DNA from: Acidobacteriota bacterium
Lineage (GTDB): Bacteria; Acidobacteriota; Blastocatellia; Pyrinomonadales; Pyrinomonadaceae
DNA: 64,000 bases
Reading direction: 5' to 3'
Assembly: GCA_003223935.1 (NCBI GenBank)
Contig: QHXQ01000039.1
Coordinates: forward strand, 2,535 to 66,534
Shown here: piece after piece, positions 713 to 54,758 of the stretch
Position numbering within the stretch: the first letter of the stretch is position 1
Layout: the number at the start of each line of letters is the position of its first letter
The notes under the pieces: generated by a model
What the model saw: the letters and a program-made list of their open reading frames with translations, nothing else
Database searches by the model: none
Told to the model about the DNA's origin: nothing
Translations under genes and position numbers: made by a program

Positions 713-2149
713 TTAGCCGAGACCGAAGAAGCGTCTGATCGCAGAGATCAACCCTTCGGACTCCTCTTCGACCGTCCGTGTGGCGGCCGTTGCGGCCAGC
801 GCCGCGCGTCGTTCAGCGATGATGTGGCTGAGCGATTCGACCAACTCAGGATTGGTCTTGAACAGTTGTTTCATCGCGCGATGGCCGATCTCCAAGACTT
901 CTGTCTCTTCGACGGCGACGACGCTGGCCGTGCGCGGCTCGCCCGTGAAGAGCGCCATCTCGCCGAAGAAGTTGCCCTCAGAGAGCGTGGCGACGGTGCG
1001 TTGTTCATAGCCATTGTTCGCATCCGCGATTCGCACCTCGACGCGCCCGTCATGGACGACGAACATCGAATCGGCCGCATCGCCTGCGCGTATGATCGTC
1101 TCGCCCGGCGCATAGATATGGCTCTCCGAGTCAGCCGCGAGGCGCGCAAGTTCTTCTGCCGTGAGTGGCGAGAAGATGTCCACAGCGGCGAGGCGATCCG
1201 TGAGACCATCAACGCCGGTTGTGCGCGTCGGCTTGGAGCGCTCGAAGTAGAGCGTCTGCGTCGGGAAAGGAAAGCCGAGACCGGCGCGGCGGAAGGCATA
1301 CCAGATGCGTTGGCGCACGAGTGCGTCGGTGTCGTTATGGCGTGCGTAGTCTTCGAGCCAATACTTGCACTCATAGTCCACGCCGCTTGCGCCCAAGTCG
1401 CGGATGCGGACGACGGGCGTGATGTCGCGCACGACGTTCTCAGTCTCGCGCACGGCCTCGCGCACAACGTGGATGACTTTCACGGGCGAGTCTGTGTAGA
1501 GCGCGCTGAAGAAAACGATGCGCGCGTTGTTGTTATCGCGCGGGCAGACTTCGACATACTCTTTGGCCGTCTGGCTGTTGCTCACCAGCACAATGTGATT
1601 CTGAAACGTCCTGAGCTTCACCGCGCGCCAAGTCACGCTCTCGACCACGCCCGTCCACTTGCCGACCGTGATCACGTCGCCCACCTCAAACGGCTTGTCC
1701 GCGTGCAGAGAGATACCGGCGAAGAGATTGCCGAGCGTGTCCTGCAAAGCGAGACCGAGGATGACGCCCAAGAGGGCCGAACCGGAGAGGAGCGGCCCCA
1801 ACGAGAGATCGAAATAGTATTTCAGCAGCGAGACGATGATGACGACATAGGCGATGATGGCGAAGATGTCGCGAATCAGGCGCGGCGCTTCCTGTCCTTT
1901 GCGCAGGCGGAAGACGAAGCTGAAGATGAAATGGCCGATGAGCCGGACGATGAGGAACATGAGGCTCAGCCAGAGTGCGATCTGCACGAAGAGCAGGACG
2001 CGCAGGTAAGCGGTCTTGGCCGCAGCGACCGGCAGCCAAAAATACTCGGCCAGCGTGAGCGGCTGCGGCGCGAAGGCGGCGAGCAGATAGATCACCAACA
2101 GACTGAGCGTCGTCGTGACAAGCGGGATGATTAACTGTCTGCGATTCAT
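713..2149 (-). CDS. Mechanosensitive ion channel (MscS family) with C-terminal cyclic-nucleotide-binding domain
   Basis: 478-aa ORF. The N-terminus has several hydrophobic helices. MscS beta-domain signature: GDVITVGKWTGVVESVTWRAVKLRTFQNHIVLVSNS. The C-terminal cNMP-binding fold carries FFGEMALFTGEPRTASVVA. Confidence 0.85.
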   Translation of the reverse strand: MNRRQLIIPLVTTTLSLLVIYLLAAFAPQPLTLAEYFWLPVAAAKTAYLRVLLFVQIALWLSLMFLIVRLIGHFIFSFVFRLRKGQEAPRLIRDIFAIIAYVVIIVSLLKYYFDLSLGPLLSGSALLGVILGLALQDTLGNLFAGISLHADKPFEVGDVITVGKWTGVVESVTWRAVKLRTFQNHIVLVSNSQTAKEYVEVCPRDNNNARIVFFSALYTDSPVKVIHVVREAVRETENVVRDITPVVRIRDLGASGVDYECKYWLEDYARHNDTDALVRQRIWYAFRRAGLGFPFPTQTLYFERSKPTRTTGVDGLTDRLAAVDIFSPLTAEELARLAADSESHIYAPGETIIRAGDAADSMFVVHDGRVEVRIADANNGYEQRTVATLSEGNFFGEMALFTGEPRTASVVAVEETEVLEIGHRAMKQLFKTNPELVESLSHIIAERRAALAATAATRTVEEESEGLISAIRRFFGLG

Positions 2150-2159
2150 GGATGCGGAC

Positions 2160-3470
2160 TCAACCGAAGAACGGCACGATGATTAAGAGCAGCGAGAGCG
2201 CCGAGATGATAATGACCGTTAGCCATGCGATCAAATTATAGACCGGGCCGTTGGCGCGCGCACCCATAAGTTTGCGGTCGCTGGCCAGTCGCGTGATGGC
2301 GACGAGCAGCACGGGCAGCAGTAGCCCGTTGATCAGTTGCGTGATGACCAGCACACGGATGAGCGGCAGCCCCGGCAAGATCGCGACGAGCGCGCCGACG
2401 GCGACCAGAAACGTGAAGATGCCCAAAAAGATCGGGGCTTCACGAAAACTGCGCGAGACGCCTTTCTCGAAGCCTAATGCTTCGCTGATCGAGTAAGCCG
2501 TCGCCAAAGGCAGCACACCGGCGGCGAGCATCGAAGCGCCGAGCAAGCCGATGGCGAATAACATCTCGGCATAACGGCCTGCGAGCGGCGCGAGTGCTTC
2601 GGCGGCTTGGGTCGCTGTGCTCAGTTCGCCTGTGAAGCCGTGCGCGTGCAGGGTCGCGGCGGTCGAGACGATGATGAAGAAGGCGATCAGGTTGGCGAAG
2701 AGTGTGCCCGTCCACACGTCTGCGCGCGTCATTGGATACTCCTCTTCGGTCACGCCTTTTTCGACGACGGACGATTGCACAAAGACCTGCATGTAAGGCG
2801 AGATGGTTGTGCCGATGAGCGCCATGACCATGAAGAGGTAGCGCGTCTCGAAACTGAAACTTGGGCGCACCAGCCAGTGCGCGACCTCGCCCCAATGCGG
2901 GCGCGCCATAAACGCCGACACGATGTAAGCGAGAAAGACGAACGACATGACGAGAAAGACGCGCTCGACACGCCGGTACGATCCCTTAACGACGAGCCAC
3001 CAAACGAGCAGCGCCGCCACAGGCACGGTCAGATATTTCGAGACGCCGAACAGTTCGCTTGCGGCGGCGATGCCGACGAATTCAGAGACGGTCACGCCGC
3101 CGTTGGCGACGAGGAGCGCGAGCATGACGAGCATCGTCCAACGCACGCCAAACTGTTCGCGGATCAGATCGGCCAAGCCCTTGCCCGTCACCACGCCCAT
3201 GCGCGCGCACATCTCTTGAATCAGACCGAGACTGATCGTGATCGGGATGAACGTCCACAGCAGTTGATAACCGTAAGCCGCGCCCGATGAAGCGAAGGTC
3301 GCAATGCCGCCCGCGTCGTTGCCTGCGTTGGCGGCGACCATGCCGGGGCCGATGATGGCTAGATACGCAAGGAGGCCCCGCCGCGTCGCCACCGTGCGCC
3401 GCACACGCCGCGCCCCGCGTCGCCACAGACGCCGCCCCGTCTCCCGCACATCTGCGCCCGTCTGCGCCAT
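2160..3470 (-). CDS. mntH: Nramp family divalent metal (Mn2+/Fe2+) transporter
   Basis: 436-aa polytopic membrane ORF. N-terminal Nramp signature: GPGMVAANAGNDAGGIATFASSGAAYGYQLLW. About 11 hydrophobic segments. Confidence 0.85.
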   Translation of the reverse strand: MAQTGADVRETGRRLWRRGARRVRRTVATRRGLLAYLAIIGPGMVAANAGNDAGGIATFASSGAAYGYQLLWTFIPITISLGLIQEMCARMGVVTGKGLADLIREQFGVRWTMLVMLALLVANGGVTVSEFVGIAAASELFGVSKYLTVPVAALLVWWLVVKGSYRRVERVFLVMSFVFLAYIVSAFMARPHWGEVAHWLVRPSFSFETRYLFMVMALIGTTISPYMQVFVQSSVVEKGVTEEEYPMTRADVWTGTLFANLIAFFIIVSTAATLHAHGFTGELSTATQAAEALAPLAGRYAEMLFAIGLLGASMLAAGVLPLATAYSISEALGFEKGVSRSFREAPIFLGIFTFLVAVGALVAILPGLPLIRVLVITQLINGLLLPVLLVAITRLASDRKLMGARANGPVYNLIAWLTVIIISALSLLLIIVPFFG

Positions 3471-3537
3471 CGGCTTGGGTCTCCGTCAGACATAAGAAGT
3501 TGAAATTTCGGAAATGATCTAAATGTCCAATTTTAAG

Positions 3538-4641
3538 CTATTGATAATATGGATTATCAATAGAGTAATGAAGATTTGTTTTAAGAATCCCCTCGCGTTC
3601 AAGAACCTGCCTGATCTCCTCGAACTTTGCGCTGATATTGCCTTTCGGAAATCGTATTTGCGAAATCCCCTGCACATTTGAAAACTCGGTACAACCTTCT
3701 TCTAATAAAATGATCGCACGCTCGAAGCCAAGCCTGCCCTGAAATAACCCAGCCTCATGAATAACATTTTCCCTAGCGTGTGTAGTTTGATCAGTGTGCT
3801 GATCTTCTCCGGTCATGACTAAAAAAGTAAATTTAGCGTTACTCAACTTTTCAGAGAGCACTTCTTTAGTACTTCGTCCGGCGACAGGTTCTCTATTAAA
3901 TTCATCCCATTCCAAGTGGAGGCGGTCGTGAAGAAAGTCTTTTAAGTCTTTCCAAACATGCGAGCGACCGTGACCAATAAAAATTTTGCCGTTTTCATTA
4001 GGTATGATTAATGAAGGGCTTTGCTTCTGCTGTAAATAAGCCGTCCTTTCTGTATAGGTGCAGGGTGCGTTAGGATCATAATCTTTCAGTGCCCGTCGTT
4101 CGACAAAGGGTCTAAGATCATCCTCGAAAAGAAAGTCGTCCATCCAAGAGGTAGCACTCAAAGTCCAATCTAGTCTATTACCGCTGACGTTCCCTAATTG
4201 GCTAAGTTCTAAAAGCTCGTTCAGCAGCTTTAATTTATCTTCAGATAAATTGAGCATCCTCGCTAACTCCTCACTGCGGATATTCATTCCTTTTAAATCT
4301 TGACCGGCATCGTATTTAGCTTGGAAGAGTTCAAGGCAGCGCACAAGAAGGTCTATACCGTCACGCCCGTCATCGGTAAGAAGTACGCCGAGGAATGTTA
4401 AGGCGTAGTAATGGTCTTGGTGCTCATAAATAATGCTGGCGTTAAGAGAGCGAAGAATTGCCAAAACATAATCTTTGCCTGACCTCCGAGATACTGTTAA
4501 ATCAGCAAACTTTCGGTAAAGTGCGGCTGTTGGCATCCACGACCAACGATCATCTTTTCTGATATGGTATTCCCATACTGCGTTCAAAGCTTCGCGCTGT
4601 GGGGCAGTAAGGCTTGCTCTGATCTCATTAACTGTAGTCAT
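3538..4641 (-). CDS. TIR-like domain protein (Cap12 / Pycsar-effector-type TIR, PF10137-like) with unassigned ~215-aa N-terminal domain
   Basis: 367-aa ORF filling a visibly AT-rich island. The C-terminal ~150 aa read KIFIGHGRSHVWKDLKDFL...FTFLVMTGEDQ...HARENVIHEAGLFQGRLGFERAIILLEEG...VQGISQIRF. This matches my memory of the PF10137 consensus (FIvHG...TpDD...RARQNVifElGyFiGkLGrerV...PSDisGv), including the candidate catalytic Glu (IHEAG). I do not recognise the N-terminal domain. AAGGA RBS upstream of the ATG at 4641. Confidence 0.7.
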   Translation of the reverse strand: MTTVNEIRASLTAPQREALNAVWEYHIRKDDRWSWMPTAALYRKFADLTVSRRSGKDYVLAILRSLNASIIYEHQDHYYALTFLGVLLTDDGRDGIDLLVRCLELFQAKYDAGQDLKGMNIRSEELARMLNLSEDKLKLLNELLELSQLGNVSGNRLDWTLSATSWMDDFLFEDDLRPFVERRALKDYDPNAPCTYTERTAYLQQKQSPSLIIPNENGKIFIGHGRSHVWKDLKDFLHDRLHLEWDEFNREPVAGRSTKEVLSEKLSNAKFTFLVMTGEDQHTDQTTHARENVIHEAGLFQGRLGFERAIILLEEGCTEFSNVQGISQIRFPKGNISAKFEEIRQVLEREGILKTNLHYSIDNPYYQ

Positions 4642-4682
4642 AATCTAAATCCTTTGAGCAATCTCATATCTGAAATTTGAGA

Positions 4683-5918
4683 TCAAAAGATTTTCGGCAA
4701 TCTCTGCCGCCAGCCTTTCGGCAATAGTAACTCCATCGCGTCGTCAACGGTGACGATGCCGGCGATGTCGCCTTCGTCGTCCACGACGGGCAGGGCGAGC
4801 AGGTTGTATTCGGCGATCTTTTGCGCGACCTCTTTGGCGGAATCGTCCGGGTGCGCCGCTTGAAACTCTTCGCGCATCACGGCGGCGAGCGGCGCGTCTG
4901 GATCGCCAAGAATCAGACTGCGCAGCGCGATCACGCCGTTCAATTTCCAAGAGCCTTCCTGTTCGACGACGTAGAGGTAATAGATCATGTTCGGCGTCTC
5001 AGCCATCTCGCGCAGGCGGGCGAGGGCTTCGCCGACCGTCAGATTCTTCGGCAGCGTGACGAACTCCGTCGTCATCAAGCCGCCGGCCGTGTCGTCTTCG
5101 TAAGGCAGTAGCTCGGCAACGTCTGCTTGCTCTTCGTCCTCCATGCGATTCAAGAGGTCTTCGGCCTTCGCTTCGGGCAGGTCGCCGAGCACGTCCGCCG
5201 CTTCGTCGGGCGACATCCATTCGAGTATGTCTGCGGCGCGCTCCTCGTCCATGTCGCCGATGATGCGCGCCTGACTCTCTTCGGGCATCTCCTCCAAAGT
5301 CTCTGCCGCCGTCTCGTCATCCAAAGCCGCGACAACCTCCGCGCCTTGATGAATTGACAAAGCCTCCGCGAGCCGCGCGATCTCGACCGGATGAAGGCGC
5401 GCGAGTTTGTCGCGTGAAGATTTCAAGCGGACGGTTGCCGCGTCGGTCGCCAAGTAACCAACGTCGGCCCAATCAATCACCTCGACAGGGTTGCGCGTGC
5501 CGGCGACGCCTGCGGGCGCGAGTCTGCGCCACAAGCCTTGCAGGCTCACGTCCGCGCCGGTCACGCGCCACTCGCCGCGCACTTCGATCAGTTGCACGTC
5601 GTTCACGCGCACGACGCGCTTGCCATCCACGTCAATCAACTGTTTGTCGAGCACATCACGTGCGAGCAAGACTTCGCCCTCGCGGCGGGCGAACGGACGC
5701 AGGTCGAGCGTGTCCGAGTTGAGTTGCGCGCCGCGCTTGTCCATGTGTGCGAGGCGCGCGCGCGGCAGATAGAAATCGCGGCGGGCGAAGCGCGCGACAA
5801 GCCCCGTCACCGGCGGATGATCTTCACCGAGACGCACGATGACATCCTTGATCGACGCGACGCGATCACCTTCAACGTCGCGCAAGGGCCGACCCAACAT
5901 CTGCGACAGATAGAGCAC
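4683..5918 (-). CDS. Soluble PRC-barrel / MgtE N-terminal domain / CBS-pair protein (no MgtE membrane domain)
   Basis: 411 aa. N-terminal PRC-barrel-like region: MLGRPLRDVEGDRVASIKDVIV. Acidic MgtE_N helical repeats: LAEALSIHQGAEVVAALDDETAAETLEEMPEE...DEAADVLGDLPEAKAEDLL. A CBS pair follows (GGLMTTEFVTLPKNLTVGEAL...LPVVDDEGDIAGIVTVDD). The ORF ends without hydrophobic helices. Confidence 0.75.
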   Translation of the reverse strand: MLYLSQMLGRPLRDVEGDRVASIKDVIVRLGEDHPPVTGLVARFARRDFYLPRARLAHMDKRGAQLNSDTLDLRPFARREGEVLLARDVLDKQLIDVDGKRVVRVNDVQLIEVRGEWRVTGADVSLQGLWRRLAPAGVAGTRNPVEVIDWADVGYLATDAATVRLKSSRDKLARLHPVEIARLAEALSIHQGAEVVAALDDETAAETLEEMPEESQARIIGDMDEERAADILEWMSPDEAADVLGDLPEAKAEDLLNRMEDEEQADVAELLPYEDDTAGGLMTTEFVTLPKNLTVGEALARLREMAETPNMIYYLYVVEQEGSWKLNGVIALRSLILGDPDAPLAAVMREEFQAAHPDDSAKEVAQKIAEYNLLALPVVDDEGDIAGIVTVDDAMELLLPKGWRQRLPKIF

Positions 5919-8354: not shown

Positions 8355-9665
8355 TTAATCGGTTGTGACGGCGTGCGTGGCTGGCGCGGCTGTGTGGTAG
8401 AGCGCATAAATCTCGTCTTTCACTTCGGGCGGGAAGCAGATGCGATGTAGTTCATATCGTTGCAGGCCGCGCACGGCGTCGCTCACTTCGCTGATCTCGC
8501 GGATGCGCGGGCGCGCATAGCCATCCTCCACATAGATGCGCGCTTTGGGTTCGGCGTCGGCGCGATAGTAGTTGTAATAGGGCACGTCGCTCGCGTGGTC
8601 TTCAATGAAATAGTATTCGGGTGCGAAGCCCGCGCGGGCGACCACATCGCGCGCGGCGTTGAGAAAATCCGCGCGCTCGGCTTCGGGCATGTCCAAGTCA
8701 ATCGCTTTGAAGAAGCGGCGCGCGATGAAGCGCGTGCTCAGGTCGCGCAAGACGTGGTCGCTCGCGCGCCGCCACTGCTTGAGATGAAAGAGCACGTCCG
8801 AGTCGTCCATCTCAAGATGGTCTGCGAGCGTGAGCGGGATGCGATGGAGCATGCGCGCGAAAGCTGTGCCGGAAGCACACCACACGTCGGCGTCGGCGGC
8901 GACGAGTTCGAGCGCGCGGCGCAAGGTTGAACGCAGGACGGCTTCGGCCGAGCGCAGTGTGCGATGAAAATAGACTTGGCGAAACATGTAGTAGCGCGCT
9001 TGCAGATACTCTTCGACGGCGTAGAGTCCGCGCGCCGCGACATAGATGCGATCATTCTCTTCGTCCACCGCGAGCGCATTGATGATCCATTCGAGATCGT
9101 AGATGCCGTACTTCGCACCAGTCATCAGCGAATCGCGCAACAGGTAATCCATCCGGTCAACGTCCAACTGTGACGAGACGAGTTGCGCCAGCCACGCGGG
9201 TTGAAAACGACCCTCGATGATCTCTGCGACGCGCTCCGGCAGTTGCGGCGCGAACGCTCGCAGCACGCGGTTGATCTCCGTCGCTTCGTCGCGCACGGCG
9301 CGCGCCGTCCAATGTTCATGATGATAGCCGAGCACGTGCTCCATGACGTGTGAGAAAGAGCCGTGCCCGATGTCGTGCAAGAGCGCGGCGGCGCGGGCGG
9401 CGGCGCGCTCTTCGTCTGCGATTCCGTAATGCTCGCTCAAACGATCAAGCACGCGCGTGATCAGGTGCAGCACGCCTAAGCTGTGCGTGAAGCGCGAATG
9501 CTCCGCGCCTTGATAGGTGTAGAGCGCGAGGCCCAACTGCTTGATGCGGCGCAGGCGTTGAAACTCTGGCGCGTCGATCAGATCGATCATCAGACGCCCC
9601 TCGCGCGTGTCTGTGCGCAGGCGGATGATGTTGTGCACGGGATCGCGATAGATGCGTTCGCTCAC
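8355..9665 (-). CDS. HD-domain phosphohydrolase (COG1078 / SAMHD1-like family)
   Basis: 436 aa. Family-typical N-terminus: [12 protein letters not shown]...[12 protein letters not shown]...[13 protein letters not shown] metal site: [14 protein letters not shown]. Confidence 0.85.
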
Positions 9666-18107: not shown

Positions 18108-21100
18108 ATGCGCCATCTCTCGCTCTCGCTCGTCTGTTTTGCGCTGCTCATAAGCGCTGCTGCAAGTGCGCCCGCACAGACACCGACCGCAGCCCAACCA
18201 ACCTTGGCGGTGCAGACGGGGCACGTGAAGAACATCGTGGCGGTCGCCGTTAGCCCGGACGGAAAAGTGATCGCCAGTGGCAGCGAAGATCAGACAGTCA
18301 AACTGTGGGAGACGGGGACGGGGCGCGAATTGCGCACCTTCAAAGGCTACGCTGCCGACCTAGACGCAGGCCCGCGCAACCGGCTCATGTTCACGCCGGA
18401 CGGGCAAGTCTTAATCGGCGGCGACCCGAAAGGCATCACGTTCTGGAGCGTGCCGACGGGTGAAGTGTTGCAACGGATCGAGAAGAACTACCGGCCCGCG
18501 CTCAGTGCCGACGGCCGTTTGCTGGCGTGTGAAGAGAGCGGCGTGAAGATTCATCTGCGGCGCGTGCCGACGGGCGAGCTAGTGCGTGATCTAAACGTCG
18601 GTTGGGAAGAACTCATCTATGCGTCCGATCTCGCCTTCACGCCCGACGGCGCGCAGTTGGCGTTGGCGAACGACAAGGGTGTGCGACTCTACAACCTTGA
18701 GTCCGGCGCGCTCGCGCGCACCATTGCGCCCGGCACGCGGTTATTCCAGATTGCTTTTAGTCCGAACGGGCAGTTGCTCGTCGGAGCGACATTCAACACG
18801 CTTACCGTCTGGGACTTTACGACGGGGCGCGAGCTACGCCGCATGTCGCTGCCTACAGTCGTCGCCGCCGACACCAAACAGACGTTCGACAACAGGCTCT
18901 ATCGCATCGCCTTCGGTGCCGACAATCAACACGTCGCGGTCGCCACGTTGTTTGGCATGCAACTGTGGGACGCGACGACGGGTCAACTCGTGCGCACGTG
19001 GGGCGACGAGCGCATGACTGTTGATCGCTTCGACGGCGTCGCCTTCAGTGCCGATGGCAAGTTGCTCGTGGGCGGCGCGCTCGCCGGCAGCGTCTATCTG
19101 TGGGACGTGGCGAGCGGGCGCGAGTTGAATCGTTCGGCCACGCGCGCAGCCAAGCTAACCTACGTGGCCTTCAGCGCTGATGGCCGGTTGATGGCGACCG
19201 AAGGCGGCACGACCAACATCTGGGACTTGACGGCCGGCGCGGTCACGCAAAGTTACAAGGGCGGCTACAACACGCTCTTCTTCACGCCCGATAATCAATC
19301 GCTCGTGCGCGGCTTTCTAGGCGTTGATCGGCTCAGTCTCGCTACAGGCCGGAGCGATCGTCTGAGCGGCAGAGGTTCGGCCGGTCTCTGGCAGACCGAC
19401 GAGGCCTTTGCGCTCAGTCCCGACGGCGAGTTGGTTGCGGGACAAGGCGAGACGGGCTTCGATGGCGCGAAGTTCGACGGCTCAGGTACGGGAAAGATCG
19501 ATCTGTTGAGCGTGCGGACGAACAGTCGTGTTAAACGTCTGGACGGACACCTCGGCGTGCGCTGTCTGGCGTTCAGTCCCGACAACAAGTTGTTGGCGAG
19601 CGGCGGCCTCGACGGCGTCATCAAGTTGTGGGATGTGACGGCGGGGCGCGTCGTGCGCACGCTCGCCGGACATAAGAATTGGGTGGACACGCTCGCGTTC
19701 AGTCCCAAAGGTGAGTGGCTCGCAAGCGCCGGCCTCGATGGCGACGTGAAAATCTGGGACGTGCAGAGCGGCGCGGAGGTGCGCACACTTGAGACCGGCG
19801 CAGTGATCGAATCGGTCGCCTTCAGTCCAGACGGGCGCACGCTGGCCGCGGGCGTCTGGGATAACACGATCAGACTTTGGGACGCTGCGACCGGCGCGGA
19901 GTTGTTCACTTTGAGCGGGCACACGGACAAAGTTCGGCGCGTCGTCTTCACGCCCGACGGGCGAATTTTGGCCAGCATCGGTTATGACGACACGATCAAA
20001 TTGTGGCGCATGTCCGACAATCAACTCTTGGCGACCATCATCGTGACGGGCAACAACGATTGGCTCGTCGTCACGCCTGACGGTCTGTTCGATGGCACGC
20101 CCGCCGCTTGGGGTCAGATTCAATGGCGCTTCTCGCCGGCGCTGTTCGACGTTGCGCCGGTCGAATGGTTCTTCAACGACTTCTATTATCCGGGGCTGCT
20201 CGCAGACATCTGCGCCGGCAAGAATCCGCGCGCTAAGCAGAACATCGCGCAGAAAGATCGCCACCAACCGCAGTTGACGCTCGCGCTCGCGGCCGGTCAA
20301 ACGGCGTCTGAGGCGAGCACGTCGCGCACGGTGAAACTCACAGTCGGCGTCGGGCAAGCTGAAGCGGGCGCGCAGGACGTGCGCCTGTTTCGCAACGGGT
20401 CGCTCGTGAAAGTGTGGCGCGGCGATGTGCTGCAAGGACGGGCGAGCGCGCTGCTTGAGACGGACGTGGCACTCGTGGCCGGTGCGAACCGCTTCAACGC
20501 TTACGCCTTCAACCGCGACGACATCAAGAGCGCAGACGCCACGCTCGTCATCAAAGGCGCGGACAGTCTCAAACGTCAAGCGACGGCTTATGTGTTCGCA
20601 GTTGGAGTCAACATTTACGCCAACCCGGAGTACAAACTGTCATACGCCGTCGCCGATGCGCAAGAGTTCGCGGCCGAGACCAAACGCCAGCAAGAAGCTT
20701 TGGGCAATTACGCGCGCGTCGAAGTTACGACACTCTTCGATGCGGACGCGACCAAAGCGAACATCATGCAACAACTCGCGCAACTCGCGGCGCGCGTCCA
20801 GCCCGAAGATACTGTGCTCATCTACTTCGCCGGACACGGCACGGCGCACGGGCGGCAGTTCTATCTCATCCCGCACGACCTCGGCTACGCGGGCGCGCCC
20901 GCACGGCTTGATGCGGCGGGCCTGCAAGAATTGTTGGCGCACAGCATTTCGGATCGCGAGTTGGAGGCGGCGTTTGCCAAACTCGACGCCGGTCAACTCC
21001 TGCTCGTCATTGATGCCTGCAACTCCGGGCAAGCTTTGGAAGCCGAAGAGCGACGGCGTGGGCCGATGAACAGTCAGGGCCTCGCGCAACTAGCTTACGA

Positions 21101-21476
21101 GAAGGGCATGTACATACTGACCGCCGCGCAGAGTTTCCAATTAGCGAACGAAGCAAAAGACCTCGGTCATGGTTACTTGACCTTCGCGTTGATTGACGAG
21201 GGTTTGCAGAAAGCTGCGGCCGATGCTGCGCCGAAAGATGGCGCGGTGACAGCGCGCGAATGGTTCAACTATGCGGTCGGGCGCGTGCCGCACATCTTCG
21301 CAGAGGAGCGCGCGAAAAAATCTGAGGACGTGTTGGCGAAGCTGCGAGGCATGAAGCTCATCATGGGCTTGGCTGATGTCAACGACGTGCAGCAACCGAG
21401 AGTCTTCTATCGCCGCGAACTGGAAACACAGACGCTCGTCATCGCCCGCCCGGCCGCGTCTGCGGCGCATCCTTAA
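18108..21476 (+). CDS. Secreted WD40-repeat protein with C-terminal caspase-like (peptidase C14) domain
   Basis: 1122 aa. Signal peptide: MRHLSLSLVCFALLISAAASAPAQ. More than 12 WD40 repeats (e.g. SGSEDQTVKLWE, SGGLDGVIKLWD, SAGLDGDVKIWD, WDNTIRLWD, GYDDTIKLWR). The caspase fold has an intact His/Cys dyad (VLIYFAGHGTAHG at ~20826 and LLLVIDACNSGQA at ~21011). Confidence 0.85.
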   Translation: MRHLSLSLVCFALLISAAASAPAQTPTAAQPTLAVQTGHVKNIVAVAVSPDGKVIASGSEDQTVKLWETGTGRELRTFKGYAADLDAGPRNRLMFTPDGQVLIGGDPKGITFWSVPTGEVLQRIEKNYRPALSADGRLLACEESGVKIHLRRVPTGELVRDLNVGWEELIYASDLAFTPDGAQLALANDKGVRLYNLESGALARTIAPGTRLFQIAFSPNGQLLVGATFNTLTVWDFTTGRELRRMSLPTVVAADTKQTFDNRLYRIAFGADNQHVAVATLFGMQLWDATTGQLVRTWGDERMTVDRFDGVAFSADGKLLVGGALAGSVYLWDVASGRELNRSATRAAKLTYVAFSADGRLMATEGGTTNIWDLTAGAVTQSYKGGYNTLFFTPDNQSLVRGFLGVDRLSLATGRSDRLSGRGSAGLWQTDEAFALSPDGELVAGQGETGFDGAKFDGSGTGKIDLLSVRTNSRVKRLDGHLGVRCLAFSPDNKLLASGGLDGVIKLWDVTAGRVVRTLAGHKNWVDTLAFSPKGEWLASAGLDGDVKIWDVQSGAEVRTLETGAVIESVAFSPDGRTLAAGVWDNTIRLWDAATGAELFTLSGHTDKVRRVVFTPDGRILASIGYDDTIKLWRMSDNQLLATIIVTGNNDWLVVTPDGLFDGTPAAWGQIQWRFSPALFDVAPVEWFFNDFYYPGLLADICAGKNPRAKQNIAQKDRHQPQLTLALAAGQTASEASTSRTVKLTVGVGQAEAGAQDVRLFRNGSLVKVWRGDVLQGRASALLETDVALVAGANRFNAYAFNRDDIKSADATLVIKGADSLKRQATAYVFAVGVNIYANPEYKLSYAVADAQEFAAETKRQQEALGNYARVEVTTLFDADATKANIMQQLAQLAARVQPEDTVLIYFAGHGTAHGRQFYLIPHDLGYAGAPARLDAAGLQELLAHSISDRELEAAFAKLDAGQLLLVIDACNSGQALEAEERRRGPMNSQGLAQLAYEKGMYILTAAQSFQLANEAKDLGHGYLTFALIDEGLQKAAADAAPKDGAVTAREWFNYAVGRVPHIFAEERAKKSEDVLAKLRGMKLIMGLADVNDVQQPRVFYRRELETQTLVIARPAASAAHP

Positions 21477-53728: not shown

Positions 53729-54148
53729 TACAAACGGGGCAAGAAAAGGCGTTTTTGCCCATTTCGCAGGGGCAAACAGGGTTTCGTTACGAGCATTTGA
53801 GGTTTCATTTGGAGCAAACGGAGTTCCGTTAGGAGCAAACGAACATCCAAACAGACCAAACGGAACTTCGTTTGGAGCAAACGGAACTCCAAACAGACCA
53901 AACGAATGTTCGTTTGCTCCAAATGAAACCCCAAACAGAGCAAACGGAACTTCAAACAGAGCATTTGGAGTTTCGTTTGCGCCTAACGGAACTCCAAATG
54001 CTCGAAACGGAACCCCGTTTGCTCGTAACGAACCTGCAAAAGCTCTTAACGAACGTCCGGCAAGAGCAAACGAACTCCCGTTCTCGCTAAAAGTGAGAAA
54101 ATTGAGGTTCAAAGTGAGACCGATGAGGTGCAAAGCGAGACCGACGCC
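53729..54148. repeat. Array of ~20 phase-locked degenerate 21-bp repeats with internal CAAACG/CGTTTG dyads
   Basis: The region splits by hand into consecutive 21-mers with no phase slip, e.g. agcaaacggagttccgttagg, agcaaacgaacatccaaacag, accaaacggaacttcgtttgg, agcaaacggaactccaaacag, accaaacgaatgttcgtttgc, tccaaatgaaaccccaaacag, agcaaacggaacttcaaacag, agcatttggagtttcgtttgc. It decays at both ends. Several overlapping track 'ORFs' on both strands span it. Confidence 0.85.
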
Positions 54149-54185: not shown

Positions 54186-54367
54186 GCCGCGCGAGCGGCA
54201 CTTGAATTTAGCCCGGCGTTTCAACGCCGGGAAAACGTAACCAAACCGCCGCGTCGCGGCAGCGACGCCTGAACCGGCGCGCACAATTCAGGCGTCGCGC
54301 GAGCGACGCCGGGCATATTCATCGTTCTGTTCCCGGCGTTGAAACGCCGGGCTAAATTCAAGTGCCG
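54186..54367. repeat. 182-bp nested palindrome with perfect 46-bp inverted arms (MITE/REP-like)
   Basis: Arm 54186..54231 (gccgcgcgagcggcacttgaatttagcccggcgtttcaacgccggg) is the exact reverse complement of 54322..54367. Each arm holds its own hairpin (cccggcg-tttcaa-cgccggg). The centre holds a second imperfect inverted repeat (gcgtcgc..gacgcctgaa / ttcaggcgtc..gcgacgc). Confidence 0.85.
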
Positions 54368-54431: not shown

Positions 54432-54758
54432 TTAACGGCGCTTGCTGCGGGCGGGCGATTTGCGCCGCACGCCTGCACTCTGCGCCCGACTTGGCAACTT
54501 ATCGGGCAAGTCCAATTCATCATCAATCAAAACGTCAGTCGAAATCCCCGCCAGCTTCGCGTAAGCCAACAAGACAGGTAGCGGCGGTTCACCCGTCCCT
54601 AACTCGTAGTTTGAGATTCTGTGGTATGCAATCACGTCCGCGAATCCCAAACGCTTGAGCAGGTCGGTTTGAGACAGACCAAGAGTCAAGCGAATCTGGC
54701 GCAACTTCTCAGCCAGACGCTTCGGCTTAATCCGCGCTGCCGCTCCCATCAAGTACAC
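54432..54758 (-). CDS. XRE family helix-turn-helix transcriptional regulator
   Basis: 108 aa. HTH_3 core: LAEKLRQIRLTLGLSQTDLLKRLGF...ISNYELGTGEPPLPVLLAYAKLAGISTDVLIDDEL. Confidence 0.85.
   Translation of the reverse strand: MYLMGAAARIKPKRLAEKLRQIRLTLGLSQTDLLKRLGFADVIAYHRISNYELGTGEPPLPVLLAYAKLAGISTDVLIDDELDLPDKLPSRAQSAGVRRKSPARSKRR

Follow-up and report, generated by a model that had tools for sequence, protein, structure and literature searches.

A horizontally acquired TIR-domain gene in a Pyrinomonadaceae genome: a candidate single-protein immune system with an undescribed tandem winged-helix module

What is a single gene of foreign composition, encoding a TIR domain of the kind found in bacterial immune effectors, doing between two metal-transport-related genes of a soil acidobacterium? 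The question arises in a Pyrinomonadaceae bacterium (assembly GCA_003223935.1), from whose contig QHXQ01000039.1 we analyzed positions 2,535 to 66,534; this 64-kb stretch is referred to below as the window. The gene, a 367-aa open reading frame (ORF; 3538..4641 including its stop, minus strand), encodes an N-terminal double winged-helix module, a linker and a C-terminal PF10137 TIR domain. A preliminary description, made from the letters and their ORFs, had seen in it an acquired orphan TIR-like effector fused to an unrecognized N-terminal domain. Our own answer, to which we assign a probability of roughly 0.55, is that the product acts alone as an immune protein of the abortive-infection type, sensor and effector in a single chain, with a presumed anti-phage function.

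The identity of the C-terminal domain (residues 219-354; 3580..3987, minus strand) is clear. It is a true Cap12/Pycsar-type TIR domain, as first supposed, and a putative NAD+ hydrolase (NADase) effector. Against Pfam model PF10137 (CAP12-PCTIR_TIR) it scores 80.4 bits, the cut-off being 24.7, with residues 219-331 covering profile positions 1-117 of 119. The PADLOC models for TIR effectors, PycTIR and PDC-S35, and the NCBIfam models for Cap12, match this TIR part alone. The only solved relatives found by sequence in the PDB are Cap12/TIR-STING (9LMQ, 7UN8) and PycTIR (8JSJ). Because ARENVIHEAGLFQGRLG of the ORF aligns with PRDNVVFEFGLFLGAAG of Cap12/SfSTING, Glu296 falls on the catalytic-loop glutamate; its codon lies at 3754..3756 (minus strand), and ENVIHEAGLF, in which it is the predicted catalytic residue, stands against DNVVFEFGLF of Cap12/SfSTING. 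For SfSTING, the assignment of the catalytic residue follows 10.64898/2026.04.30.722052. Of 104 homologous TIR domains, 103 have the N-x-x-x-E-x-G motif, and the conserved glutamate picked out earlier from the letters IHEAG is borne out.

An AlphaFold2 (AF2) model of the full-length protein, with a predicted local distance difference test score (pLDDT) of 90.1 and a predicted TM-score (pTM) of 0.69, has two well-folded domains with a low-confidence stretch between them at about 205-218. The flexible interdomain linker, residues 209-218 (3988..4017, minus strand), lies where pLDDT drops to about 70 (residues 201-220) and, at residues 209-211, below 50; it is also the fusion point at which partner domains change among homologs. 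The best Foldseek match is the TIR domain of SfSTING, 7UN8_A, with a root-mean-square deviation of 3.2 Å over 140 columns (E values for the 7un8 and 9lmq chains range from 2.5e-5 to 5e-4), followed by the TIR domains of SPARTA and SARM1. In the model, a beta-hairpin (residues 280-288) also separates strand C from the catalytic helix. PF10137 TIR domains have been described as a distinct clade in which such a hairpin is typical and NADase activity depends on oligomerization (10.64898/2026.04.30.722052, preprint). The hairpin, being a feature reported as typical of oligomerization-activated Cap12/Pycsar TIRs, is counted in favor of the sensor-effector reading.

The TIR half is a highly conserved cassette, found at 62-75% identity over about 40% of the query in thousands of proteins with unrelated N-termini. 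Examples include stand-alone proteins of about 375 aa beside insertion sequence (IS) elements and toxin-antitoxin (TA) pairs on Klebsiella and Ciceribacter plasmids (L097, L098). The cassette occurs in phages as well, in the protein family phrog_16442 and in a Microcystis phage gene (MT855965.1) annotated “CMP/hydroxymethyl hydrolase.” By eye, some of the other N-termini, that of P0088 for example, look winged-helix-like.

The N-terminal part, residues 1-208 (4018..4641, minus strand), is predicted to form an undescribed tandem winged-helix module, the putative sensor. Residues 1-215 have no match in Pfam, NCBIfam, PADLOC or PHROGs, and a profile of the module finds no match in the PDB by sequence. 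The preliminary description had found these roughly 215 residues unrecognizable; that stands for the family libraries, but the fold is not wholly unknown. AF2, given an alignment of 43 sequences, models the module with high confidence (pLDDT 94.5, pTM 0.89) as two consecutive winged-helix-like units, of helix-helix-helix-hairpin form, together with connecting helices. Unit 1 comprises helices 13-29, 38-44 and 54-65 and hairpin 71-81, and unit 2 comprises helices 123-129 and 134-147 and hairpin 151-162. Foldseek searches of the PDB and of the BFVD viral predicted structures return only weak, generic winged-helix matches of the MarR/ArsR type (E>=0.06, TMq<=0.3). In the model, then, the fold class is a familiar one, and the two-unit arrangement has no described relative or close structural match. 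Residues conserved in the module are W23, W35, G68, Y79, L81-G85-L88, W159 and Y188-D-P..P193. The module is uniformly acidic, with a median isoelectric point of 5.2 and a net charge between -1 and -16 in 43 of 43 aligned modules, and its alignment has only 4 conserved basic columns. These features speak against DNA binding of the classical kind, which seems unlikely for the module, and in favor of a protein or other ligand.

The protein is not the orphan that the preliminary description took it for: its N-terminal module recurs with many other effector domains. A phmmer search with the module alone against 1.84 billion representative sequences found 231 clusters at E<=1e-3, 83 of them at E<=1e-10; a word-indexed protein search had added few sequences, and the exhaustive search of representatives was needed. 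A profile of the module, run against a 90%-clustered database, found 64 clusters, all named “hypothetical protein” or unnamed and nearly all metagenomic. Judged by these searches, the module defines a rare, unnamed family. Its recurrence with many effectors strengthens the sensor-effector reading.

The module is N-terminal in 159 of 168 homologs, and more than 80 further residues lie C-terminal of it in 139. These partner regions fall into 54 sequence clusters and represent at least 15 alternative partners. A helical domain of about 145 aa that lacks annotation, with an invariant D, E and R-N-x-x-H, is the most common (53 clusters), followed by the PF10137 TIR domain seen here (18 clusters) and by DUF4062 (seven clusters), a domain now recognized as an NADase. 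Other partners named by Pfam are TIR_2, TIR, ThsB_TIR, SEFIR, Hypoth_Ymh, DUF4145 and Abi_C; Mrr_cat, a cyanobacterial two-transmembrane (2-TM) domain, PNP_UDP_1 (alone, with NACHT or with Kelch) and a protein kinase; and GGDEF, the Cas10 palm and a KAP NTPase. As annotated, the partners are mostly recognized toxic effector domains.

The exchange of effectors on a constant module can be seen directly in close relatives. The nearest relatives lacking a TIR domain, P0011-P0016, are 51-58% identical through the module and switch abruptly at the linker to the 145-aa domain (residues 214-355 in P0011). Among orthologs of TIR type, identity in the module falls from 73 to 52% while that in the TIR domain stays at 93-85%. 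A sensor-effector immune protein would be expected to show this pattern, a constant, faster-evolving N-terminal module joined to interchangeable toxic C-termini.

The 145-aa domain has weak matches to DUF4145 in three members (E about 0.02-0.08), no Pfam match in 10 further members, and no sequence match in the PDB. Its R-N-x-x-H motif is one residue short of the classical Rx4-6H unless counted from an upstream Arg. For these reasons the HEPN label was not accepted; the domain, which may be a new effector domain of HEPN-like kind, is called “HEPN-like, unproven.”

How the gene came to its present position can be read from related genomes. Orthologs of the upstream gene product at 82-93% identity, found in 80 Pyrinomonadaceae/Acidobacteriota species genomes, identify the host lineage, and none of these 80 genomes has the TIR gene at the corresponding junction. 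Empty sites in two close relatives (L012 and L013) leave 57-59 bp between the MgtE_N gene and mntH, and alignment with them delimits the inserted foreign DNA to approximately 3508..4657, about 1150 bp. The insert consists of the ORF, about 30 nt downstream of it and 16 nt upstream, which contain a Shine-Dalgarno-like AAAGGA. These 16 nt, and roughly the first 12 nt downstream, resemble the flanks of the closest homologs (L001, L002), which indicates that essentially a bare ORF was transferred. Contigs carrying the closest homologs (63-79% identity) have 43-51% GC, and the gene GC of 0.43-0.44 equals or nearly equals the background there; the window copy has thus kept a donor-like composition, matching homolog-bearing contigs of roughly 43-46% GC, a sign of recent acquisition. 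A 100% identical protein, in the same MgtE_N/Nramp flanks, is present on 6 contigs from different soil metagenomes, evidence of recent spread with no bearing on function. The gene is foreign to its host and moved alone as a 1.15-kb insert, and the horizontal acquisition first suspected from base composition is thereby supported.

The compositional evidence itself is sharp. A low-GC block of about 1.15 kb (GC 0.43) containing a single ORF lies between the MgtE_N/CBS gene and mntH; 200-nt windows have a GC of 0.375-0.465 over 3501-4700 and 0.58-0.72 on either side, and this block, at about 3500-4700, is the sole strong dip in the 64 kb. GC at third codon positions is 0.41 in the ORF against 0.71-0.80 in four neighboring genes. 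Both the sudden drop and its coincidence with one 367-aa ORF on the strand of its neighbors had been reported beforehand and are correct, and the peptides then quoted are found in the translation. Transcription runs on the minus strand through all three genes, from the PRC/MgtE_N/CBS gene (5918->4683) through the TIR ORF (4641->3538) to mntH (3470->2160), with intergenic gaps of 41 nt and 67 nt. The first of these (4683..5918, minus strand; assigned by Pfam) is native and borders the insertion site on one side; transcription probably comes from it. The last (2160..3470, minus strand; Pfam Nramp, 316 bits), also native, adjoins MgtE_N in related genomes and forms the other border. Since all three genes are on the minus strand, position 3470 is the start of mntH rather than its stop, as had been written, and 4683 is the end of the stop of the MgtE_N/CBS gene.

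Two short words noted earlier in both flanks are indeed there (TGAAATTT: 3501, 4671; ATCTAAAT: 3517, 4643), but they make no recognizable insertion signature. Each occurs 4 times in the window, with 1.16 and 0.47 copies expected from whole-window shuffles, an excess that is weak evidence because the local sequence is AT-rich. By comparison with the empty sites, both copies of TGAAATTT are native intergenic DNA, and both copies of ATCTAAAT lie just within the ends of the insert. Neither a target-site duplication nor terminal inverted repeats were found at the insert by alignment of occupied and empty sites and by repeat search. Insertion of the transposon type was rejected on this ground, the two 8-mers forming no such structure. 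A 16-nt inverted repeat, 88% complementary with a 4-nt loop, at 3533-3568 covers the last codons and the stop of the TIR ORF; no T-run follows it, and the C-terminal tail of the ORF is not conserved among homologs.

In other species the site is variable. Across Pyrinomonadaceae species (L011-L090), the gap between the MgtE_N gene and mntH varies from 57 bp to 5.3 kb, and the cargo, 0.4-5 kb and mostly of lower GC, includes a RelB-like/ParE pair (L015), a DUF433/DUF5615 pair (L042) and Ser/Thr kinase genes, some of them accompanied by ECF-sigma-like genes (L039, L043, L060, L065, L083); Pfam confirmed the two pairs and the kinases. With cargo this variable, the junction behaves as a recurrent insertion spot. 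Several small ORFs lacking annotation are also among the cargo; a HicB-like identity considered for the junction ORF of L014 was dropped when Pfam did not confirm it.

A TIR domain of this clade raises the possibility that the protein is one half of a signaling system whose other half lies elsewhere. The module would then bind a nucleotide, cyclic or linear, that a cyclase, CD-NTase or TIR protein encoded at another site produces, in the style of CBASS, Pycsar or Thoeris, and the TIR domain would deplete NAD+ in response. Kinship with the CBASS effector Cap12 and the Pycsar effector PycTIR speaks for this, as does the possibility of small-ligand binding by MarR-like winged-helix folds. Its main support comes from the surroundings of a close homolog, P0006, where Guanylate_cyc and CYTH genes (L001, 4786-6873) lie 3.5-5 kb downstream, after ParA-like and radical-SAM genes; no other homolog context has a cyclase. 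A second homolog has a SMODS-like gene about 5 kb away. Against it, a PADLOC scan (E<=1e-6) of the 52 ORFs of the window, in line with the preliminary description, found no CD-NTase, SAVED, ThsA or true cyclase gene. No similarity between the module and cNMP-binding, STING, SAVED, CARF, SLOG or Macro sensors could be detected; the gene moved by itself as a 1.15-kb insert; the NCBIfam Cap12 equivalogs reach 39 bits against a cut-off of 450; and the neighbors differ in every homolog context, leaving no conserved partner gene. We regard this orphan-effector explanation as unlikely.

The ten largest ORFs of the window encode housekeeping-type proteins, with PF00211 in 0 of the 10. Two genes away from the TIR gene lies an MscS-type channel gene (716-2149, minus strand) with a C-terminal cNMP-binding domain, which matches the PADLOC models for PycC, PycTIR and TIR effectors (E 1e-6 to 5e-15) through that domain alone; the PycC match joins channel residues 334-473 to profile positions 26-162 of 374. 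So near a TIR gene, such matches could pass for a Pycsar component, but the PycC match and the second PycTIR match both map to the cNMP-binding domain of this channel, and a Pycsar-like pair in the window was rejected on that ground. Local phmmer searches of the window with the TIR domain and with the L001 cyclase found nothing further. Domain-level PADLOC matches from other window ORFs are to caspase, HEAT-ARM, Ankyrin, CARF3, PDC-M72A, PDC-M43B and mad8, and the dGTPase match is an HD protein at 8358-9665. A WD40 protein of 1122 aa (18108-21473) has an uncharacterized N-terminal region of about 450 aa.

The neighborhoods of homologs are often of defense or mobile character. One has ParA, radical SAM, guanylate cyclase, CYTH and methyltransferase genes (L001); others have SIR2-TPR; XRE-type helix-turn-helix (HTH), S8 peptidase, AAA and integrase; nSTAND, NACHT and PD-(D/E)XK; housekeeping genes; Phd/ParE, transposase and SMODS; or XRE-HTH, integrase and several TIR genes. 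The NTPases in this list bear on a second alternative, in which the module docks its effector to a separately encoded receptor, a STAND or NACHT NTPase, in the way of effector-associated or death-like domains, and the window copy is a detached effector. The module is fused to PNP_UDP_1 plus NACHT in P0196 and to a KAP NTPase in another member, an nSTAND NTPase gene lies directly downstream of P0013 with a NACHT gene nearby, and the range of partners is like that of effector-associated domains. The other contexts, however, share no conserved NTPase partner, and none flanks the window gene; some 208 residues with two winged helices are unlike the small helical adaptor domains known; and the module was not found as a separate domain in neighboring receptor genes in the stretches examined, a partial check. 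On balance, a docking role for the module appears improbable.

The sole recurring neighbor is a 91-aa XRE-type HTH gene, directly upstream of the module gene in two loci, of TIR type in L003 and with an alternative effector in L095/L096; identity between the two copies is 53%. This invites a third alternative, one that concerns regulation and is compatible with the sensor-effector reading: that the ancestral unit paired an XRE-type HTH with the module-effector gene, and that the window copy, having lost its HTH, is mis-regulated, silent, or controlled in trans. The candidate for control in trans is a 108-aa XRE-type HTH encoded at 54432-54758 (minus strand), 50 kb from the TIR gene, whose 47-52% identity to the HTHs of L003 and L095/L096 counts for this idea. 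It is unlinked, though, and beside unrelated sequence, with no module-effector gene next to it; homologs in L002, L004, L091 and L093 have no HTH upstream; and the insert has just 16 nt upstream of the ORF. We think such a loss improbable as well. Next to the window HTH gene, at about 53770-54140, lies a low-GC (0.45-0.48) stretch holding a degenerate 21-bp tandem repeat array with a consensus of about GAGCAAACGGAACTCCAAACA in some 15 units, partly organized as 42/63-bp super-units; GC-rich short palindromes follow at 54212-54350. The array is possibly iteron-like or operator-like.

How would a stand-alone sensor-effector protein work here? The gene was acquired recently by horizontal transfer, as a bare ORF placed in the MgtE_N->mntH tandem of its Pyrinomonadaceae host, and is probably transcribed from the promoter of the host genes. 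The acidic double winged-helix module would recognize a phage-derived ligand, more likely a multimeric phage protein than DNA, and ligand binding would gather the C-terminal TIR domains. Like other PF10137 TIRs, the domain would become an active NADase only upon oligomerization; NAD+ would be depleted, and the infected cell would stop or die. We propose clustering, NAD+ depletion and abortive infection because the module is acidic and because one-protein NADase defenses with variable sensing domains exist.

Several points weigh against this proposal. The module family is absent from PADLOC, and is thus not flagged as enriched in defense islands, and the contexts sampled are few (8 distinct loci). 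Two members, the window copy included, lie among housekeeping genes. Among the partners are signal-generating rather than killing domains (GGDEF, Cas10 palm, kinase), so the module could be a general input or adaptor domain instead of a phage sensor. MarR-type winged helices often bind small molecules, and the trigger may be one. The insert, finally, has no promoter of its own, and expression by read-through from MgtE_N is assumed: in 3300-4900 no sigma-70-like promoter was found by a scan that does not cover acidobacterial promoter types, and terminator-like matches there are only at chance level.

A further alternative is that the gene has nothing to do with immunity, being a DNA- or ligand-binding regulator with a TIR-like domain that processes or binds nucleotides (as a nucleoside or CMP hydrolase-like enzyme, for example), or an inert passenger. 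Relatives are annotated “predicted nucleotide-binding protein” in source records, the TIR part has the phage homolog annotated as a hydrolase mentioned above, and the gene sits between two metal-transport-related genes. Yet its composition is foreign and all 80 related species lack it at the junction, the module is paired elsewhere with toxic effector types (HEPN-class domains, Mrr nuclease, 2-TM domain, NADases), the catalytic Glu is conserved, and the acidic module argues against DNA binding. A function outside immunity we hold to be improbable.

If the immune reading is correct, the locus offers a clean natural case in which a host operon has captured an immune cassette of one gene, with an exact empty site for comparison. 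It would also expose a small, unnamed family of sensor domains overlooked by present defense-finding libraries, of whose proteins PADLOC and Pfam detect the TIR half only, and whose most common effector partner is itself without annotation. Because the module is combined with many effector types, identification of its trigger would explain many candidate systems together and could reveal a new effector domain. The case would bear, too, on how Cap12/Pycsar-type TIRs are activated when no nucleotide second messenger is involved. Should the reading be wrong, what remains is a passenger gene with a TIR domain, recently acquired.

Comparison with known systems shows which parts are familiar. Cap12 (TIR-STING; SfSTING, 7UN8, 9LMQ) shares the PF10137 clade, is the best PDB match by sequence and by structure, and has the catalytic Glu motif and the hairpin before the catalytic helix; its NADase is switched on by sensor-driven oligomerization, to which we liken our proposal. 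The ORF, in contrast, has no STING domain by Pfam, no CD-NTase match occurs in the window, the TIR domain is N-terminal in Cap12 and C-terminal here, and models NF050171 (38.8 bits) and NF050172 (38.5 bits), with a cut-off of 450, are matched by the TIR part alone. PycTIR (8JSJ) shares both the clade and the domain order, sensor N-terminal and TIR C-terminal, and its PADLOC model matches residues 213-345. That match covers profile positions 147-273 of 288 alone, the TIR half, while the ORF has no cNMP_binding domain by Pfam and the window no PycC cyclase. The protein belongs to the PF10137 domain family and lacks the defining features of Cap12 and of PycTIR.

PDC-S35, a candidate single-gene system of PADLOC, likewise consists of single-gene proteins whose C-terminal TIR domain is of the same clade. 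Five of its models match the TIR part, residues 205-352 or so, at E 1e-11 to 1e-7, but the matches begin at about profile position 70-130, and the N-termini of the models do not match the winged-helix module. A literature search on PDC-S35 and COG4271 found nothing useful, and a survey of TIR signaling explicitly set stand-alone TIR proteins aside (10.64898/2025.12.03.692087). Thoeris is more distant: the ORF has no match to PF08937 (ThsB-type TIR), and the window contains no ThsA, SLOG or Macro effector. MarR/ArsR regulators, the sole structural neighbors of the module, resemble it one winged-helix unit at a time; those matches are weak, do not reproduce the two-unit arrangement, and contrast with an acidic module.

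In its proposed manner of action the protein resembles Swarozyc, Evangelion and Vulcan, in which a TIR-like NADase and a variable sensing domain share one polypeptide. Swarozyc joins DUF4062 to an AUX domain of HTH/winged fold, whose assembly on the phage portal activates the NADase (10.64898/2026.05.01.722283); Evangelion is another single-protein NADase defense with a sensing domain of winged-helix type (10.64898/2026.06.25.731849), and Vulcan a further one in which that domain is variable (10.64898/2026.09.04.749371). The effector of all three is DUF4062 (NIR), whereas the ORF has no match to PF13271 and its effector is PF10137. In seven module-family clusters the partner is DUF4062; the effector comes first in Swarozyc and the sensor first here, with DUF4062 C-terminal of the module in those clusters as well. 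AUX and the module are likened by description, as HTH or winged folds. Tentatively, with odds we would put somewhat short of even, the whole family may be one constant, fast-evolving sensor wired to at least 15 interchangeable killing or signaling domains (PF10137 TIR, TIR_2, DUF4062/NIR, HEPN-class, Mrr nuclease, 2-TM, PNP, kinase, GGDEF), detecting a conserved assembly of phage proteins as the portal-sensing AUX domain of Swarozyc does, possibly as its distant relative, and with the 145-aa partner as a new effector domain. By analogy, the protein described here would work like these single-protein sensor-NADase systems, without their effector family and without demonstrable homology to their sensors. 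What it adds to them is the family of the N-terminal module, together with the range of partners that this family uses.

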